Shown here piece by piece: positions 2,239-60,588 of a stretch of 64,000 nt of DNA. Source of the stretch: a virus. Location: positions 31,598-95,597 of the IMG/VR virus record IMGVR_UViG_3300036770_002165, one strand, 5' to 3'. The notes beneath the pieces were generated by a model that ran no database searches, was not told the DNA's origin, and saw nothing but the letters and a program-made list of their open reading frames with translations. How positions within the stretch are numbered: the stretch's first letter is position 1; the number at the start of each line of letters is the position of its first letter. A program made the translations under genes and the position numbers.

Positions 2239-2445
2239 ATGCCTCTTAGCCCACAGTTCGCAGACCTTAACAAAGGTCTAGAACAAACACTCACCACACA
2301 AATCAAAAACAGTGTGGACGAAATGTTGTCGATGACTGCTGGTCACCAGATAGTCTCGGCATCAGAAATGGCCGACAAGTTGCTTGACCTACGCATCCTT
2401 GTCAGCCAACTAGAACACCAAGGAGAACCACATGGTGACGATTGA
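2239..2445 (+). CDS. hypothetical protein
   Basis: AGGAGG RBS. Confidence 0.65.
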   Translation: MPLSPQFADLNKGLEQTLTTQIKNSVDEMLSMTAGHQIVSASEMADKLLDLRILVSQLEHQGEPHGDD

Positions 2446-5800: not shown

Positions 5801-5826
5801 ATCCACACACAAGTAGGAGAACCCCT

Positions 5827-6932: not shown

Positions 6933-7161
6933 ATTTCACGTTTCATCTAAGCGAATTGTCTACACAAAATTCGCTGCACTAGCACTGACAATCTTGCTCG
7001 CCGGGCGTATCATGCTCAGCGACCCCAACGTGGTGTACCGGTACATCGGTACTCTTGCGTTCATCGGATTCAACATCCGAGCCATGATGTTGGCCGTGTA
7101 CATCCAGTACCGTGGTAAGCACGGTTGGGGTAGTACGGTTGATATCCCAGATAATCATTAG
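6925..7161 (+). CDS. small membrane protein
   Basis: Two hydrophobic segments; GAGG RBS. Confidence 0.6.
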   Translation: MPEFHVSSKRIVYTKFAALALTILLAGRIMLSDPNVVYRYIGTLAFIGFNIRAMMLAVYIQYRGKHGWGSTVDIPDNH

Positions 7162-7172
7162 GAGAACCACCA

Positions 7173-7436
7173 ATGAGAGCTAACCCGTACGTACTTACCT
7201 TTGACGACGGTGCAGACGGTGGCCCAGAGCATTTGTTGTGGGTACTCACCGGTTTCTACTGCAAGTTCATGAAGCAAGGCGAGTTGGTATTCGAAGGGGT
7301 TATCAAGGAGGTGGAGAGCTCCTTGGGGGAGGTACTAGTAGAGATACCCATTGACGAGAGGCCTGACCTAAGCGGCCCAGATCGTCGCCGCCTACTTGAC
7401 ATCTACGAAGACTTTGACGAAGTGATCTACCAATGA
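7173..7436 (+). CDS. hypothetical protein
   Basis: TAGGAGAACCACCA RBS. Confidence 0.7.
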   Translation: MRANPYVLTFDDGADGGPEHLLWVLTGFYCKFMKQGELVFEGVIKEVESSLGEVLVEIPIDERPDLSGPDRRRLLDIYEDFDEVIYQ

Positions 7437-9082: not shown

Positions 9083-9163
9083 CGAAGGTCACAAAAATAA
9101 TCCCACAACTTTCCTGTCTTATGGATAGGATGAACCTCAACCACCAACTGAAAGGAACCACCA

Positions 9164-10369
9164 ATGGTTGCAGCCAAAGCCCTCCGTGAGGGCATGGAAG
9201 TAGTCATCAACTCCGGGCCCTACACCGGACTGATAGCACGGGTCATCGATCCCACCGTCTTCCCCGACGGGCACCCCGACCAGCGCAAGATCCGTGTTGA
9301 TATCGCTGGTGTCGGTGAGACGCTGATCATTCCCAAGCAGCTCAGCATCACCGGCATGGCCCCCGTGGTGCACAGCGCACCAACTGTGGTTGCCAGTACT
9401 GCACCAGTGCACGTGCCAACCGTGGCCGTGTCCAAAACGCCTATCACATCTCTTGACGATCCTGCCCTTGACCGTTGGCGTCCACAGCGTGCCAGCGTTG
9501 TCAAGGAGTACGTATCTCGAGAGTTGCCTGGCGGTATCAAAGATGTCGATGCGCTAGTCAAGTACTGGCGTGACGACCGCATCGATGGGTACGCCCCTAA
9601 CATCGGCCTGGTTGGTGACACCCAGTCCGGTAAAACAATGCTGGTTGAGGTTCTCGCCCACCTTGTGGCCAAGGAGATGGGGTTGTCTAAGCCCTTGCCG
9701 ATCTTCTTGCTCGCCGGTAACAGCGCCATTACCGACCACGATATGTTCGGCCAATACCGTCCTGACGACACGGGTCAACTCGTGTGGATGGAGGGTGTGG
9801 TTGCCCTAGCCGCACGCATCGGCGGAATCCTGTATCTCGACGAGGTCAACGCAATGCCTGGTGCAGTCACCGCGGCTTTGCACCCGTTAGCTGACGATAG
9901 ACACCAGTTCGTTAACATCCGTAAGCCTGTCGATGACGGGCACGGTGGCATGATGCCTGATGTTGTCAAGGCATCTACTGACCTGTGGATCATGTCGACG
10001 TACAACCCTGGCTATGCCGGTATGAGCAAGGCTAACGAAGCATTCCTCGCACGGTTCCGCTGGTTGCAGTGGAACTACGACGAGGAAGTTGAGAAGAAGT
10101 TGATCAAGTCGCCTGGTGTCAGGTTGCTTGGCCAGTCTCTCCGCAACGCCCGTGAGGGTCGTGCTATCTCAACACCGGTGGGCACATCCGCACTGCAGCG
10201 TCTTGAGCGTGACATCGCCATGTTCGGCGTTGAGTACGCACTCTGGTCGTTCTGCGGGCAGTTCACCAGTAAGGCCGAGCGCACTGTTGTCGAAACCCTA
10301 ATCGAAGACCGAAGCATCCGGCTCATGATTACCACAGAAGTCGAGGGGACAGTTAAGGAGCAAGCATGA
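9164..10369 (+). CDS. MoxR/CbbQ/NorQ-like AAA+ ATPase with N-terminal KOW-like region
   Basis: GDTQSGKT Walker A, LYLDEVN Walker B, TYNPGYAG, AFLARF. Confidence 0.9.
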   Translation: MVAAKALREGMEVVINSGPYTGLIARVIDPTVFPDGHPDQRKIRVDIAGVGETLIIPKQLSITGMAPVVHSAPTVVASTAPVHVPTVAVSKTPITSLDDPALDRWRPQRASVVKEYVSRELPGGIKDVDALVKYWRDDRIDGYAPNIGLVGDTQSGKTMLVEVLAHLVAKEMGLSKPLPIFLLAGNSAITDHDMFGQYRPDDTGQLVWMEGVVALAARIGGILYLDEVNAMPGAVTAALHPLADDRHQFVNIRKPVDDGHGGMMPDVVKASTDLWIMSTYNPGYAGMSKANEAFLARFRWLQWNYDEEVEKKLIKSPGVRLLGQSLRNAREGRAISTPVGTSALQRLERDIAMFGVEYALWSFCGQFTSKAERTVVETLIEDRSIRLMITTEVEGTVKEQA

Positions 10370-14208: not shown

Positions 14209-14512
14209 CGACATCGTGACCCGACTACGGGAATCGCTAGAAATGATTCACCCCGACCCCCAGGATGTGCGCGACGCCATCAACGAGATTGAACGGCTAC
14301 GTGGATACCAGGCAGGATATGCCGGTTTAGTCGAGGATAACTCGACCTATGAAGATGAGGTAGAGCGTCTCAAAGGGTTGTTAGACCCCATCATCAAGGC
14401 ATTCACGGTTCAGGGACCCGTTCCTGCGTACCATGAACACATCAAGCGCGGTTTGAAGAAAGAATGGCCTGTTCTGTACCGAGCGCTAGAACAGGCTAGT
14501 AAACAGTACTAG
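14198..14512 (+). CDS. small phage protein, paralog 2
   Basis: MKPDDIVTRL...AINEIERLR. Confidence 0.7.
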   Translation: MKPDDIVTRLRESLEMIHPDPQDVRDAINEIERLRGYQAGYAGLVEDNSTYEDEVERLKGLLDPIIKAFTVQGPVPAYHEHIKRGLKKEWPVLYRALEQASKQY

Positions 14513-14522
14513 GAGAACCACC

Positions 14523-14972
14523 ATGCAGACATTCGTACCATACGGTAAACACTTCGTTGGTAATGCCGCTGTTCTTGACCGACAGCGATTAGGTAAGCAA
14601 CGAGTCGAAGGATTACAAATCCTCAGAACACTTAAGGGCATCAACTACGGATGGGCCAACCACCCAGCTGTCAAGATGTGGGATGGCTACGAGGACGCCC
14701 TGGGGTATTACACCCTAACCATATGTAACCGTTGGACTTCTTATGGTTACAAAGACACCTGCGCTTACAAGGTGCGCCAAATCCTCCCGCATCTTACTGA
14801 CGCAGTTATTAACCGTGAGCAGATCAGGGAAACGATTGAAATGCCGCCGTGGTTAGACGACCTAGACTTAATGATGTCTCATAGGTCAAACCTGATCCGT
14901 AAGAAGCCTGACTACTATGGACCGATATGGCCAGAGACTCCTAGCTACCTGCCTTACAAGTGGCCCCGCTAA
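14523..14972 (+). CDS. MSMEG_6728-like protein (pyrimidine-dimer glycosylase/EndoV-like)
   Basis: MQTFVPY...LDRQRLGKQRVE...GWANHPAVKMW...SHRSNL. Confidence 0.85.
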   Translation: MQTFVPYGKHFVGNAAVLDRQRLGKQRVEGLQILRTLKGINYGWANHPAVKMWDGYEDALGYYTLTICNRWTSYGYKDTCAYKVRQILPHLTDAVINREQIRETIEMPPWLDDLDLMMSHRSNLIRKKPDYYGPIWPETPSYLPYKWPR

Positions 14973-30734: not shown

Positions 30735-30747
30735 GTTGTTCTCCTAG

Positions 30748-40125: not shown

Positions 40126-40453
40126 GGTGGTCCTCTTGTGTGTCGTTGTAGGAGTTCTCAATTATGTCCCAAAATTTTGAGTTGTCAATCTTCCGCTTGT
40201 GTACAACAGTGGTGTGTACATCAAGACCAGCTTTAGTACTAAATTGCGCTGAGCATTCAGGGCACTTCTCCATGTCCTTTTTGGGAACTTGTTGACGGGT
40301 GCAGAAAATGTCAGTGGGAATCAGTTGGTCCATAGAGTGGTCGAACCAAAGCTCGTACTCCTGCGGTGAGGAGAAGTTCTCATTAACCCAGGCAGCAAAG
40401 AACAGGATGTCATCAAGGCTTGAAAATACGTAACGCTTATCATTTTCTTCCAT
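40097..40453 (-). CDS. C2H2 zinc-finger protein
   Basis: CPECSAQF....L..H...H. Confidence 0.7.
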   Translation of the reverse strand: MEENDKRYVFSSLDDILFFAAWVNENFSSPQEYELWFDHSMDQLIPTDIFCTRQQVPKKDMEKCPECSAQFSTKAGLDVHTTVVHKRKIDNSKFWDIIENSYNDTQEDHHEPELPDTD

Positions 40454-41678
40454 GATTGATTCTTCTGTAGTTGTACACAGCCTCCGTAATTGAAGCGGCC
40501 TGGGGTCTTAAATTTTCTTTTGACAACTTGATCAGCTCGTCAGGCAGTGGAACCCCAGTTAGGGACTCCCGTAGCTCAACCGGGTCACCGTCTTCTTCAC
40601 CAGCTATAACTCTTACTAACGAGTTTAGCGTAGATAGGGTAGGTTTAAATTCTTCAGATGTACCACCTGAACTATTCTCGATGAGGTAAACTACTAGTTC
40701 GGGGTATCGATAACAGATATCCATTCCGTACATGATCACGGTGTTCCTTATGACCTGATCACTCGCCCGGTCATCCCACGGTAGGTCTAGATCACCGCGC
40801 TGAAAGTCGTTTACGACGAAGGAGAGAACGGGGTTGTCTACGGCAACCGTAGCGTCGGTCTGCTCCATTAGTTTTTTCTGCACGGCCTTGCTGGAGAATG
40901 TCAGCACTGGGTTGTCTGAGTTGCGCCAGTGCTCTACGTCGAGGAAGCGTTTGATCATCTGTGAGATGGTGAACTCTGTTAGGCCGGAGTCGGCCAGCGT
41001 GTTGAGGGTCCTTTTCAGTATCACGACTTCTTGCGTGGAGTACGTGCGGCTCATGATAACCCGGGGGTCACCAATGAACTGGGTGACGAGTCGCCCTAGC
41101 TTCCGGTTGGGTTTCTTCTTCGGTGCCGGATCGAACGGAACGTCCTCTCGGTCTGGGTCTGCCCCAAAGATCATGTCCTCACCTCCGCCGCTTGCGGCCC
41201 TCTTTAGTACTTCTATGTCACTAATATCTAGTATCTCTATTGCAATTTCGCGAATCCCCTGGTCGGGCCAGGAAAATGGCCCATTTGAATAGGTCACCGG
41301 TGACCTATTGGGAGCACCATCATGGGTACTTGAATAGGTCACGGCTGACCTATTGAATAGGTCACCGGTGACTCTATTGGTTGGCTTTTGATAGATGATC
41401 TTGTACACATTTACGGCTGGCTTACCACGCCTGGTGGTGAGTACCACTCGATGTTCTTCGAGCCACTTTAATGAACGCTGTACCGTTTTTGGGCTAACCA
41501 TTACGTACTCTGCGATCTGGTTGATAGACGCCCTAACCTCTTGCGTACGGCGTTCCATGAGGGCTACTAGTCCTACTAAAACCTGTAGGTCACGCGCCTG
41601 ACCGTGGTCGCGGATCTCCTCCGCAGCCCACACGGGAACCGCCAAGAAAGGTCCCTGAAAAAGCGAGTTGGTGGTCAT
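40440..41678 (-). CDS. replication initiator (N-terminal wHTH)
   Basis: SINQIAE...SPKTVQRSL..LE; precedes dnaC/dnaB; internal iterons. Confidence 0.75.
   Translation of the reverse strand: MTTNSLFQGPFLAVPVWAAEEIRDHGQARDLQVLVGLVALMERRTQEVRASINQIAEYVMVSPKTVQRSLKWLEEHRVVLTTRRGKPAVNVYKIIYQKPTNRVTGDLFNRSAVTYSSTHDGAPNRSPVTYSNGPFSWPDQGIREIAIEILDISDIEVLKRAASGGGEDMIFGADPDREDVPFDPAPKKKPNRKLGRLVTQFIGDPRVIMSRTYSTQEVVILKRTLNTLADSGLTEFTISQMIKRFLDVEHWRNSDNPVLTFSSKAVQKKLMEQTDATVAVDNPVLSFVVNDFQRGDLDLPWDDRASDQVIRNTVIMYGMDICYRYPELVVYLIENSSGGTSEEFKPTLSTLNSLVRVIAGEEDGDPVELRESLTGVPLPDELIKLSKENLRPQAASITEAVYNYRRINHGRK
41288..41378. repeat. three palindromic iterons, putative origin
   Basis: AATAGGTCACCGGTGACCTATT at 41288-41309; variants 41333-41354 and 41356-41378. 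Confidence 0.85.
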
Positions 41679-41687
41679 GGGTGGGGC

Positions 41688-41752
41688 AGAATACACCACC
41701 CAAGAAACATGCGCAATGATCCTTGCGCGACCAGCGCTCCCGGTGCTACGTT
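41688..41752. promoter_or_regulatory. back-to-back sigmaA-type promoters
   Basis: Minus TTGCGC-N17-TATTCT; plus TTGCGC-N18-TACGTT. Confidence 0.55.
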
Positions 41753-41758
41753 ACGCAT

Positions 41759-41852
41759 ACCAGGCAGTTGGTGGTTCTCCTACCTGGTTTGTAGGTTCAG
41801 CAGACGCCGGGGCTCATGGGGTAAAATCTCCATGACCCCGGCGTTTGTGTTT
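41759..41852 (+). ncRNA. putative anti-RBS small RNA (or dps leader)
   Basis: Promoter, 5' hairpin with loop complementary to extended RBS, terminator hairpin with T-rich tail. Confidence 0.55.
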
Positions 41853-41863
41853 CAGGAGCCTAA

Positions 41864-42298
41864 ATGGACGAGCTAATTAAGGCACTCAAAGTAGCTATGG
41901 CTGATGTGGTTACCATGTACTTCATGGCCCACGGGTACCACTGGAATGTAGAAGGTCAGGACTTCAGCCAGTACCACGACCTGTTTGGGGATATCTACGA
42001 GGATGTCTATGGCTCAGTCGATCCTTTGGCTGAGAACGTACGGAAGCTTGATGACTATGCGCCGTTCAGCCTCCAGAAGTTCATCGACCTTCGTAACGTC
42101 GAGTTCAAGGATGTTGACCCCACGCCAAAGGCAATGGCCAAGTCACTCATGAAGGCCAACGAAACCGTGATCGGGACACTGAACGATGCCTTCAAGAAGG
42201 CTGAAAAAGCTGACCAGCAGGGGATAATGGACTTCCTTGCTAGTCGAATTGATATGCATATGAAATGGGCGTGGCAACTCCGCGCCTCAACTAAGTGA
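41864..42298 (+). CDS. dps: Dps-family mini-ferritin
   Basis: HGYHWNVEG.DF.QYHDLF..IYE...D.LAE.VR; K.AWQL. Confidence 0.93.
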   Translation: MDELIKALKVAMADVVTMYFMAHGYHWNVEGQDFSQYHDLFGDIYEDVYGSVDPLAENVRKLDDYAPFSLQKFIDLRNVEFKDVDPTPKAMAKSLMKANETVIGTLNDAFKKAEKADQQGIMDFLASRIDMHMKWAWQLRASTK

Positions 42299-43277: not shown

Positions 43278-44000
43278 TTACCACTTCTGTGCGTGTTCGA
43301 CAACCACTTCCATTATTTTTTTAAGGATTTCTTGACCGCCGTTGAACCCGATCTCTGTACCGTCTTCCATCAGTACGATGATGGACCCGACCTTCTGTTC
43401 ATGTTGCCCGGACAGCATGTTCACAGCTTCTTCTTTGGACTTAGGATCAAACCCCTTGTCCTTTGCCATGCGCTTGACCAATGCTGTGGGCATCATCTCA
43501 AGCGTCTCTCGCTCGTAATTGGTTTCACCAATGTCAGGAAGTTCCTCTTCCTTCTCCTGCGGCTCATCAGAATCGTTATCCAAGATGATCGGCACAAGTC
43601 CGTTTGTTAGCTCTAGCGTTGGGAGCCGAAGATCGATCGCCTTAGACGCAATACTTACAGAATAGTTTTCCTTCTCCTGGTCCCACAGCACCAAGGCCAG
43701 GCCCTCTACCTCGCGGTTCTTAAGGGCGTTGATAATGTGTGCGTCTACATCATCAACAACAGTTACCGAGGTGGCCTTTTGCGCAAGGACCTTTGGCACA
43801 GCCTTAACCCCGTCCTTAGCTACAACAGAGAACGCAGCCTCGTTGTCCACTACCCAATCGTAAACTGCCTCAAGACCGTCAGTTACTTTGCCGTACCAGG
43901 GGACAATGAACACGGGCTCAAGCCCAATGTCATTAAGAGATGCCTCAATTACCTTGCGGGATGCTGATCCCGATCCAATAACTCCGTACGCCTCGCGCAT
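43278..44000 (-). CDS. hypothetical protein
   Basis: AAGGAGAACC RBS. Confidence 0.7.
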   Translation of the reverse strand: MREAYGVIGSGSASRKVIEASLNDIGLEPVFIVPWYGKVTDGLEAVYDWVVDNEAAFSVVAKDGVKAVPKVLAQKATSVTVVDDVDAHIINALKNREVEGLALVLWDQEKENYSVSIASKAIDLRLPTLELTNGLVPIILDNDSDEPQEKEEELPDIGETNYERETLEMMPTALVKRMAKDKGFDPKSKEEAVNMLSGQHEQKVGSIIVLMEDGTEIGFNGGQEILKKIMEVVVEHAQKW

Positions 44001-44009
44001 GGTTCTCCT

Positions 44010-58106: not shown

Positions 58107-58811
58107 TTAAATGACCTCCGAAAACGGGGTAGTGAATACAGTGGGGTTCTGATTGTCTGCATTTGTAATAGTAGCAACAACTGATGTAACTTGCTTGACT
58201 TGGACTAGGTCGGATGCGGGGATCTCAGCCGACATATGTAATGTGTACACTTTTCTAAAGATCCGCTTACGGTAGCCAGCTTCTCCGTCAAGGAGATCGC
58301 TGTTTACCCACGAGATCAAATCAAACCGACGGATTGTCCCGTCTTCCGGGACCTCGATAAAACCGCGGCGAAAGGGCGCTACGCGTCGCAAAATCTTCGA
58401 GGTCAACTGCCGATCATGTAGAGCGCTTCTGGCGTAGGTTGAGATTTGGTAAATGAGAGTCACTGGAACAAATGAATCCGTCCGCAAGTAGTCGTTGCCA
58501 CCCAGCTCAGCAGCCATGCCAGCGGCGTCTAGTTCGGACGGGAAATAATCGAGGTAGACAGGAGATAGGGATGCCCCGGAAATACCACTCGCGTAGTAGT
58601 ATGACTGCTCGGAGTGCTGCAGGGATCGGTTATGGGATAGCCCAACATGCTCGATTGTTATAAACGGGTATTCCTTCTCGGTCTCCCCCTCGGGATAACG
58701 GAAGAATACTTTTGCGACACGCTGGGGGTTCTTATCGTCTGATACAGATATATTCGAAAAGCGAGCCTTAATAGCGGCATCTTCTGCGAGCAGGAATCCG
58801 GGATGAGTCAC
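58107..58811 (-). CDS. tail terminator-like protein
   Basis: Precedes sheath; YPFITI, P..L.YQI. Confidence 0.65.
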   Translation of the reverse strand: MTHPGFLLAEDAAIKARFSNISVSDDKNPQRVAKVFFRYPEGETEKEYPFITIEHVGLSHNRSLQHSEQSYYYASGISGASLSPVYLDYFPSELDAAGMAAELGGNDYLRTDSFVPVTLIYQISTYARSALHDRQLTSKILRRVAPFRRGFIEVPEDGTIRRFDLISWVNSDLLDGEAGYRKRIFRKVYTLHMSAEIPASDLVQVKQVTSVVATITNADNQNPTVFTTPFSEVI

Positions 58812-59254: not shown

Positions 59255-59791
59255 TTACCCTAAAGTAGGGAGGGTTGCAGGCCATGCGTAATTGTCTATA
59301 CGCAATTGCTCAGGTCCTGGATCATTTATAAACTCTTGGTCAATTAATATTTCTTGACCAGCAATAAGCACAAACACGTCATCGCGTAGACGGCCACGGA
59401 CCCGATAATCGTAGACAGAGTAGTACCTACCATCATATGAAAATATATCATTTAGATGGTTACGGTATTCCCAAGGTTGGTCTATACCAGCGTCTCGCAT
59501 GTCCTGGATTGACACAAACATGTTCATTGTTTGCACAGGCTGACGGCCTTCTGGGATAGACCTCTTTTGATCTTCGTTCTCTGAACCCAAAAGTATAGGA
59601 AGTACTACTCCAGTCTTGTACTCCCTTCCACCAACGCCTGGTACACCCTCGTCATAAACATCGTCGTAGATGCTATTGACAGACGCTGACCCTAGCGGCT
59701 TGAATTCATACCAAATAACGCTTTCGCCAGCCACATCGTGGTGGCGGCGGAAGTGTTTGTTTATGATGCCTAGTTCTCTACGAACGTCCAT
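59255..59791 (-). CDS. head closure/neck protein
   Basis: Position; DDVYDE motif. Confidence 0.6.
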   Translation of the reverse strand: MDVRRELGIINKHFRRHHDVAGESVIWYEFKPLGSASVNSIYDDVYDEGVPGVGGREYKTGVVLPILLGSENEDQKRSIPEGRQPVQTMNMFVSIQDMRDAGIDQPWEYRNHLNDIFSYDGRYYSVYDYRVRGRLRDDVFVLIAGQEILIDQEFINDPGPEQLRIDNYAWPATLPTLG

Positions 59792-60588
59792 CAGTAGTAC
59801 GCCGTAGTCGTCTGCCCAGATCTTGGGGTAGTGTCAACGTACACGTCCTCCCGCAGGTTGTCGTCGGATAGCTCGGTGTTAACAACACCGGAATCGATAT
59901 CTGGCCAGAGACGCTCAAGTGGTGAATAGTCCCCGAATTCCTTAGGCTTGTATAGAGGTACAAGGCGATTAGTGGTGCGGGATGTACGTCGTAGGCTAAA
60001 TACCTCAAGTCGGTCTACGCCGATGTTAAGCGCCGTAGCATGACGCTTGTACTCCCCTTCCCACTGAGCAAGCATGGACTGAACCATACGGAAACGTTGG
60101 CTGGCCGGAATGTGCACAGACTCAGACGTTATTACGTCGATATCACGGCTGTACTCAGTAAGAAGGGCCCAAAGACATTCCACAATTGCAGCAATACCAA
60201 TGGCGTTGACAAGCATGTCTGACATGCCTTCTATACCAACCTTTAGATCGCGCAAATGCTTTTCTAGGGCGCGCTGAGAGTAGAACGATAGATCAGCTGG
60301 GGTTACCCATTCATAGTAGTATCCCTCAATCAGGAGCTTTGACCCAGTTGGTGGTACCGACGCCAGGCGAAGGATGCCGTTGCGGTCATCAAGTGAGTAC
60401 GACGATGACGCCAGCTCCGTCGTCACACCTGTAGTTGTGTACGTTGCAACCCACAGGCTGCTTGCGTCTATGTTGGTCTGCCCTAGTTGGTAGGTGCGCC
60501 CAGCAACGTCAAAAGTTGTTTGAAAGAAGCGCGGAAAGTCCCGAAGGTAAGTACGGGCAATCGTCTCTATATCTGCAAAGGTAGCCAC
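59791..60588 (-). CDS. head-tail adaptor/neck protein
   Basis: Position; RTSRTTNRLVP.Y. Confidence 0.6.
   Translation of the reverse strand: MATFADIETIARTYLRDFPRFFQTTFDVAGRTYQLGQTNIDASSLWVATYTTTGVTTELASSSYSLDDRNGILRLASVPPTGSKLLIEGYYYEWVTPADLSFYSQRALEKHLRDLKVGIEGMSDMLVNAIGIAAIVECLWALLTEYSRDIDVITSESVHIPASQRFRMVQSMLAQWEGEYKRHATALNIGVDRLEVFSLRRTSRTTNRLVPLYKPKEFGDYSPLERLWPDIDSGVVNTELSDDNLREDVYVDTTPRSGQTTTAYY

Follow-up and report, generated by a model that had tools for sequence, protein, structure and literature searches.

Gene arrangement and parts of the element

The stretch of viral DNA analysed here (the window; 64,000 nt) is part of a 95.6-kb virus record with direct terminal repeats. A putative RNA element on its plus strand, at 41759–41852, lies between two divergent units: a minus-strand replication module, made up of a lambda-O-like wHTH initiator (40440–41678), a zinc-finger protein and a DnaC-like loader, and a plus-strand dps/ferritin-like gene, whose ATG is at 41864 and whose Shine-Dalgarno (SD) sequence, AGGAG, is at 41854–41858. 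The features of the region are listed below.

40440–41678, minus strand: replication initiator (wHTH, lambda-O-like) with its ATG at 41678 and no SD; assigned by PHROG replication-initiation families, its N-terminus aligning with relatives
41688–41693, minus strand: −10 hexamer TATTCT, 9 nt before the initiator ATG; TAnnnT stands 9–10 nt before the ATG in nearly all lineages
41711–41728, either strand: palindrome GCGCAA-N6-TTGCGC, read from the sequence, between the two divergent promoters (initiator and small RNA)
41744–41752, plus strand: extended −10 promoter element TGcTACGTT, read from the sequence; predicted start of the small RNA near 41758–41760
41759–41852, plus strand: predicted small RNA of ~94 nt, consisting of stem-loop 1, a spacer, hairpin 2 and a U tract; from the fold, a covariance model and covariation
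41759–41788, plus strand: stem-loop 1, ACCAGG (41759–41764) pairing with CCTGGT (41783–41788), 6 bp with an 18-nt loop; from sequence and fold
41765–41782, plus strand: loop CAGUUGGUGGUUCUCCUA (as DNA, CAGTTGGTGGTTCTCCTA), near-invariant in relatives and the subject of the duplex statistics
41800–41848, plus strand: hairpin 2, GC-rich, ~21 bp, terminator-like, with its core at 41803–41843; from the fold, a stem that covaries and G·U pairs that favour the plus strand
41822–41827, plus strand: TAAAAT within the hairpin-2 loop, perhaps the −10 box of a promoter that dps has to itself, as relatives suggest
41844–41852, plus strand: U tract TTTGTGTTT, of varying quality among relatives
41864–42298, plus strand: Dps/ferritin-like gene downstream of the element (Pfam Ferritin, E = 8.9e-17; phrog_3636)

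All of the parts that a preliminary description had placed at 41759–41852, namely the promoter, the ACCAGG/CCTGGT stem, the loop, the GC-rich hairpin and the U tract, were found again on re-reading the sequence; the promoter and terminator of the small RNA are predictions from pattern matches. A sigma-70 consensus scan did not flag the TGcTACGTT box. In RNAfold the 94-nt RNA reaches −49.4 kcal/mol (z = −5.6), a stability attained by none of 200 shuffled sequences. The core of the loop, GUUGGUGGUUCUCCU, is the complement of AGGAGAACCACCAAC, and the predicted intrinsic terminator is formed by the covarying hairpin of ~21 bp followed by UUUGUGUUU, with a U tract that is weak in some relatives. 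Rfam gave no match at gathering thresholds over the window, the sole match being a chance-level miRNA model (E = 6), and ARAGORN found no tRNA or tmRNA gene over the window. Two ideas about the loop were dropped: that it mimics the 3′ end of 16S rRNA (by eye, about 10 of 15 positions are identical and the central part differs), and that it belongs to a T-box-like element or represents a tRNA 3′ end (ACCACCA), for which there was no supporting architecture.

TAnnnT is found in the hairpin-2 loop of every relative, and in relatives lacking the element TGGTATTAT or TGGTACGAT stands about as far from the dps SD. Because the hexamer thus occupies the position of the dps promoter in the element-lacking relatives, dps may have its own promoter within the terminator loop, in which case transcription of the small RNA could interfere with that of dps. 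As an observation in its own right, the hairpin at 41800–41848 resembles a promoter embedded in a terminator hairpin. The palindrome at 41711–41728 is probably an operator for both divergent promoters; inverted repeats of the GCAAC..GTTGC type occupy the same place in relatives, including those that have no small RNA element.

The use of SD sequences, the TGnTAnnnT promoters and the leaderless-type starts together point to an actinobacterial host. The nearest matches of the RecA protein encoded in the window are those of Streptomyces phages, at 45% identity, and the virus appears actinophage-like, the RecA likeness being only a hint as to the host.

Conservation, covariation and strand

Searches of isolate phages with the region and the initiator (megablast and tblastn) gave no match, and an initiator search of viral contigs returned no relatives; Dps was taken instead as the anchor for finding relatives. 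A search of viral contigs for Dps homologues yielded 80 loci. The element is present upstream of dps, on the same strand and in a single copy per genome, in at least seven lineages (the window, L002, L013, the L015 type, L024/L030, the L038 type and the L047/L129 type), in which the Dps proteins are 67–85% identical. A 21-mer spanning the loop is identical in seven other contigs, and the core GUUGGUGGUUCUCCU is constant in the relatives, with differing flanks, save for GUAGG in L030 and UUCUUC in the L038 type.

Among the relatives, 12 different stems close the identical loop. When 16 sequences were aligned, 24 of 27 pairs were found to change on both sides and 85.9% of cells to be paired, against 60.7% in shuffled controls (0 of 500 reached the observed value) and 43–51% with slid partners, figures that come from an alignment fitted to the covariance model and so favouring the structure. 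The covariance-model alignment was used for these counts; sequence-only alignment with MAFFT followed by RNAalifold mis-paired stem 1. Since stems and spacers vary in length among the relatives, no reading frame is kept, which argues that the element is non-coding. Covariance model R1 found the element in the element-bearing relatives on the plus strand only, and it gave nothing convincing in eight element-lacking relatives.

The plus strand folds better than the minus strand in 18 of 18 copies (summed energies of −849 vs −699 kcal/mol; 95 vs 14 G·U pairs). The UUCUUC variant of the loop, as found in G004, still pairs with GGAG by means of G·U pairs, and the minus strand would there read AGAAG, with no SD. 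In all lineages a TAnnnT hexamer precedes the loop motif by 11–16 nt (20 nt in one lineage), accompanied by TGn in seven, and the hexamers themselves differ; with this spacing, transcription is predicted to begin at the foot of stem-loop 1. It is very likely that 41759–41852 is a plus-strand structured RNA gene, and the preliminary claim of a discrete small RNA gene gains comparative support from the promoter pattern, the covarying stems, the terminator-like hairpin and the near-invariant loop. The sequencing runs that contain window DNA are DNA only (subsurface and freshwater metagenomes), with no RNA run among them.

Two variants of the element deserve description. In one sub-family (L047:3851–3979, L129:7416–7544 and L176:9823–9951), a small extra hairpin lies between stem-loop 1 and the terminator hairpin and is followed by a second, apparently unpaired GUGGUGGUUA motif, a possible additional seed. 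The element has a degenerate relative at L061:3895–3987, which has kept GUGGUGGUU and lost CUCCU; the initiator of L061 begins ATGAAAAGC, not ATGACCACCAAC.

In a different account of the locus, the functional strand would be the minus strand: AGGAGAACCACCAAC would serve, within a long leader of the initiator, as an SD-like standby site or as the ribosome-binding site (RBS) for a leader ORF, and the plus-strand features would be incidental or would represent a cis-antisense RNA acting in the manner of R1 CopA/tap/repA or tisB/IstR-1. This account draws on the lack of an SD before the initiator ATG, on the identity of the loop complement with the RBS consensus of the window phage, and on a 27-codon minus-strand ORF (ATG 41758, in-frame CTG 41767) whose end overlaps the initiator start in an ATGA. 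The ORF, which had earlier been put forward as a gene that a start-associated motif at this place might serve, is however not conserved: it reads MGY-stop in G002, in G001 it is fused to the initiator in frame, and the encoded peptides bear no relation to one another. Coupling through a leader peptide, with the stop of the upstream ORF overlapping the initiator ATG, was rejected for this reason. Neither is any start codon found at a constant, workable distance from the minus-strand SD-like motif. Nearly all lineages, bearing the element or not, keep the TAnnnT hexamer ahead of the initiator ATG; in the L047/L051 type there is instead a leader that carries an SD, AGGAGCCACCATG. Given the 9–10 nt between this −10 box and the ATG, the initiator mRNA is probably near-leaderless, with a start ~80 nt from the element and downstream of it, so that the element would not be part of that mRNA. 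These points, together with the distribution of G·U pairs and the AGAAG reading of the G004 motif, make a functional minus strand improbable.

Complementarity of the loop to translation starts

The loop of the plus-strand RNA is complementary to two kinds of start region. Its 3′ part (UGGUGGUUCUCCU) is complementary to AGGAGAACCACC(A), the SD and spacer in some genes, mainly early ones, the target form being AGGAGAACCACC(A)ATG, and its 5′ part (GUUGGUGGU) is complementary to codons 2–4 (ACCACCAAC) of the neighbouring initiator mRNA. The reverse-complement sites reported in the preliminary description were all recovered, one of them with a corrected extent: the match given there as 11 nt at 5813–5823 is really one of 10 nt at 5814–5823. 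The sites in the window are as follows.

2421–2434, plus strand: start region of a 215-aa gene, AGGAGAACCACATG; 11-nt match (2421–2431), −22.3 kcal/mol
5814–5823: further reverse-complement site; 10-nt match
7159–7175, plus strand: start region of an 87-aa gene, TAGGAGAACCACCAATG; 15-nt match (7159–7173), duplex of −27.6 kcal/mol
9139–9166, plus strand: MoxR leader, AACCACCAACTG then GGAACCACCAATG; matches of 12 nt (9139–9150) and 10 nt (9155–9164), −20.0 kcal/mol
14510–14525, plus strand: start region of a 149-aa gene, TAGGAGAACCACCATG; 14-nt match (14510–14523), −26.0 kcal/mol
30738–30746: recA RBS; 9-nt reverse-complement match
41666–41678, minus strand: initiator 5′ end, AUGACCACCAACU; 10-nt match (41666–41675), pairing with the 5′ part of the loop by 10 pairs including one G·U
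43998–44009, minus strand: start region of a 240-aa gene (43278–44000), AGGAGAACCATG; 10-nt match (44000–44009), −21.0 kcal/mol

An additional 13-nt match is found at genome position 28191, 3.4 kb to the left of the window. The motif-bearing RBSs are situated mostly in the left plus-strand gene cluster, up to ~15000, where 5′ leaders are CA-rich (caacaacaAGGAG, aaaccacaAGGAG), and the G001 orthologue of the 149-aa gene has the same RBS. At 7150, a palindrome of the CTAATCATTAG type abuts the RBS motif (window 7150–7175).

The strict form of the motif, GGAGAACCAC followed by 0–3 nt and ATG or GTG, occurs 4 times in the genome, compared with ~0.07 times in dinucleotide shuffles. Of 136 start regions, 6 form a duplex with the loop at −20 kcal/mol or better; control loops, in which CUCCU was kept and the rest shuffled, gave as many such duplexes in 3 of 500 trials and three duplexes of −25 kcal/mol or better in 0 of 500. 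The observed complementarities are not due to chance, and the AGGAGAACCACCAUG start regions are predicted, as candidates, to be targets of the loop. The term RBS ‘barcodes’, under which these sites had been described, overstates their specificity: the motif is a shared consensus found on a subset of mainly early genes.

The element and its motif also go together across genomes. With one loop sequence as the probe throughout, the bearing genomes G000, G001, G002, G004, G005 and G012 each have 4–8 start regions at −20 kcal/mol or better, as against 0–1 in six element-lacking genomes, and the strict motif is found 4, 4, 4, 1 and 3 times in bearing genomes vs once in total in 14 lacking genomes. 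G003 has the element and no strong target; the early region is entirely missing from its contig (matches to 0 of 32 early proteins). The Dps tree suggests about four gains or losses of the element, with a lacking clade (L003/L008/L009) nested among bearing ones, so that the association of element and motif does not go back to one event; because the genomes are related, the independent contrasts behind the co-occurrence number perhaps 2–4. Individual genes follow the same pattern. Orthologues of the 240-aa gene have AGGAGAAC or AGGAGAAA in 7 of 7 bearing genomes, and AGGAG with other bases after it in six lacking genomes. At the initiator start, ATGACCACCAAC shows no synonymous change in eight bearing lineages, with later codons varying freely, while in lacking lineages the initiator starts ATGGGAACyAGyAAy, with synonymous variation. 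Pairing of the 5′ part of the loop with initiator codons, and of its 3′ part with the SD and spacer, would explain why all 15 nt are frozen.

Since the loop hardly varies, no compensatory change between loop and target was found among the relatives, and the GUAGG variant of L030 adds a mismatch to an unchanged initiator site. The complementarity of seed and targets is thus above chance, and its evolutionary support comes from co-occurrence, not from compensatory change; on both grounds the earlier claim of pairing between the loop and an extended RBS present on a number of phage genes is upheld as a prediction. CA-rich spacers such as AACCACC could, on the other hand, have been selected simply for efficient translation, which counts against reading these sites as targets.

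These comparisons bear on whether the plus-strand transcript does no more than serve dps as a 5′ leader or attenuator, with stem-loop 1 and hairpin 2 acting in cis through pairing of CUCCU with the dps SD, and with the other RBS matches a by-product of an anti-SD sequence. The arrangement speaks for it: the element is always directly upstream of dps on the same strand, 5 nt separate the end of its terminator-like hairpin from the dps SD, and this SD reads (U)AGGAG(A) in all relatives, which permits 5–7 nt of pairing. CUCCU would be enough for such pairing, yet 15 nt are invariant, and a leader acting in cis leaves unexplained both the link to AGGAGAACCACC start regions across genomes and the frozen initiator codons. 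In element-lacking relatives, moreover, dps stands behind a short region with its own TGnTAnnnT box, and the −10-like hexamer in the loop of hairpin 2 means that dps perhaps does not need the upstream promoter. We consider a role confined to the dps leader unlikely. The cis pairing with the dps SD that had been proposed as an alternative in the preliminary description likewise covers only 5–7 nt, and the invariant GUUGGUGG part is not accounted for by it.

It is far less probable still that the loop is a coincidence, i.e. a relic copy of an RBS in an ordinary intergenic hairpin. Sequences containing AGGAG are common, and the 14-mer by itself has many chance matches in the virus collection, but the loop stays constant amid variable flanks in at least seven lineages, and the covariation, the conserved promoter pattern and the co-occurrence with the motif all argue otherwise. 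When viral contigs were scanned with the 14-mer, most matches were chance ones in coding sequence, along with a few real-looking hairpins. The latter, which carry the same loop (GUUGGUGGUUCUCC) in unrelated viral contigs, are located at L138:147–275 (minus strand), L182:13630–13710, L203:744–830 and L169:111–239 (minus strand). A TGTTATAAT box and a terminator of its own accompany the L138 hairpin, those of L182 and L203 are two terminator hairpins in one contig of 39% GC, and the L169 hairpin has a different initiator-like gene for a neighbour. The contig fragments of L138, L182/L203 and L169 showed no RBS motif to match, and for L138 and L182/L203 this weighs against a repressor role of the loop.

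A possible translational repressor and its parallels

The reading that we prefer, and to which we give about an even chance of being right, is that the element encodes a trans-acting small RNA that represses early genes and the neighbouring initiator as a multi-target translational repressor. The RNA would be transcribed from the actinobacterial-type extended −10 promoter TGcTACGTT, would fold into a 5′ stem-loop displaying GUUGGUGGUUCUCCU, and would end at the long hairpin and U tract just before dps. By covering the initiator mRNA at its 5′ end and the start regions of a set of genes, mainly early ones, the loop would hide the ribosome-binding region and lower translation, so that transcription of the replication/dps region would bring about a post-transcriptional shut-off, or throttle, of early genes and the initiator. 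Expression of dps itself might rely on read-through, or the −10 box inside the terminator hairpin's loop might serve it as a promoter.

Several known regulators share parts of this scheme. The multi-target small RNAs 6C/B11, RsaE/RoxS and RNAIII of Gram-positive bacteria and Actinobacteria have C/U-rich loops that pair with SD regions. Like them, the window element is predicted to be a short RNA with its own promoter and terminator, whose loop seed blocks initiation by pairing with the SD and flanks of several mRNAs. Those RNAs are host-encoded, with C-rich seeds (UCCC) and targets that share only the SD; the window element, by contrast, is phage-encoded, and its predicted pairing extends over 13–15 nt, through the spacer up to the AUG. 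In R1 (CopA/CopT-tap-repA) and in IncI plasmids (Inc RNA), a small RNA beside the initiator gene limits translation of the initiator by loop-based pairing. The plasmid RNAs are true cis-antisense RNAs of a long rep leader and act via a leader peptide, whereas the window initiator seems to be near-leaderless, the RNA lies clear of it, and relatives do not keep the leader ORF; an overlap between RNA and initiator leader of the CopA/Inc RNA type is made improbable by the inferred mRNA start ~80 nt away. T4 RegA offers the precedent of one phage factor that represses the translation of many early mRNAs at their start regions; RegA is a protein, and the factor proposed for the window phage is an RNA. 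To our knowledge, a role is established for few of the small RNAs that phages encode, and in the literature searched no phage small RNA was described that targets an extended RBS motif shared by a set of the phage's own genes. The c4 antisense RNA of phages P1 and P7 blocks translation by pairing of its loops around the RBS of a phage mRNA (PMC12197685). It resembles the window element, as predicted, in being phage-encoded and in acting in trans on a site that it does not overlap, and it differs in having one target (ant), in being processed from the same operon transcript and in its immunity role in a temperate phage.

The closest likeness in layout is offered by the Start-Associated Sequences (SAS) of Cluster K mycobacteriophages, which were described in 2011 as 13-bp sequences containing AGGAG (Pope et al. 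2011, PMC3203893). The SAS have the consensus GGGATAGGAGCCC and lie 3–9 bp before start codons, the distance to the ATG being 3–7 bp for 11–19 non-structural genes; their role was unknown in 2011 (PMC3203893) and is still called unknown in publications of 2024 and 2025. A single SAS in the opposite orientation, away from gene starts, was reported in Anaya, Adephagia, Angelica and CrimD (Pope et al. 2011, PMC3203893). We located this reverse SAS at 59870–59882 of the Anaya record and 58682–58694 of the Adephagia record, in the gap between gp96 and gp97 of Anaya and between genes 92 and 93 of Adephagia. There, as CCUCCUAUCC, it caps a ~20-bp hairpin as its apical loop, and the surrounding gap, of 385–432 nt, is untranslated; the hairpin lies near the right genome end (L244:34790–34960, Anaya record 59789–59959; L274:1600–1720, Adephagia record 58599–58719) and is conserved with compensatory changes across K1 phages. 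Late transcription in Adephagia is reported to begin in the 92–93 gap (PMC11373665). In other K subclusters the hairpin is kept and its loop has diverged (UCCUCCUUCCC, CUCCCUUCCC), so as to be only partly complementary to the SAS; Unicorn has at least 13 exact SAS copies despite its diverged hairpin loop. Among the publications searched, none was found that links the SAS to an anti-motif hairpin.

Both motifs are asymmetric, are ~13 bp long and contain AGGAG, and both reach beyond any pairing with 16S rRNA; the two unrelated actinophage groups have in common a motif at many starts and one anti-motif in a hairpin loop. They differ in the motif (GGGATAGGAGCCC in Cluster K vs AGGAGAACCACCA in the window phage), in phage lineage and host, and in copy number, with 11–19 near-identical copies in Cluster K and 3–5 exact copies plus looser ones in the window phage. 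The Cluster K hairpin is without an evident promoter and terminator of its own, unlike the window element, for which both are predicted. The window phage does not belong to the SAS-bearing phages, its motif being AGGAGAACCACC(A) and the architecture analogous only.

The same likeness can be turned toward a protein. The repeated 13–15 bp motif could be a binding site for one, either on DNA, like the stoperators of Cluster A, or on mRNA, as with T4 RegA, and 41766–41781 would then be one more operator just downstream of a promoter. The motif is asymmetric, stands at gene starts in the orientation of transcription, and resembles stoperators and SAS, sequences that have been suggested to bind proteins (PMC3203893). 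Flanking stems would be superfluous in a DNA operator, and yet they covary; a protein that binds AGGAGAACCACC in RNA would not recognise its complement on the plus-strand transcript; and no candidate protein was identified. A protein site accordingly has little probability in our estimation.

Returning to a repressor RNA, we suggest by analogy, as something possible rather than probable, that some actinophages define a regulon of early genes by an extended RBS motif and shut it off with one anti-motif hairpin RNA at the onset of middle or late transcription, the window element and the K1 reverse SAS being two independent inventions of this arrangement. If this is true, the purpose of the Start-Associated Sequences would be explained. 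The Cluster K parallel amounts to a concrete, testable hypothesis for the SAS, for which RNA-seq data, BRED engineering and a tractable host exist, and pairs of motif and anti-motif could serve as orthogonal translational switches. For the window phage itself, the small RNA, if it acts as proposed, would provide a simple RNA-based temporal shut-off of early genes together with a throttle on the replication initiator.
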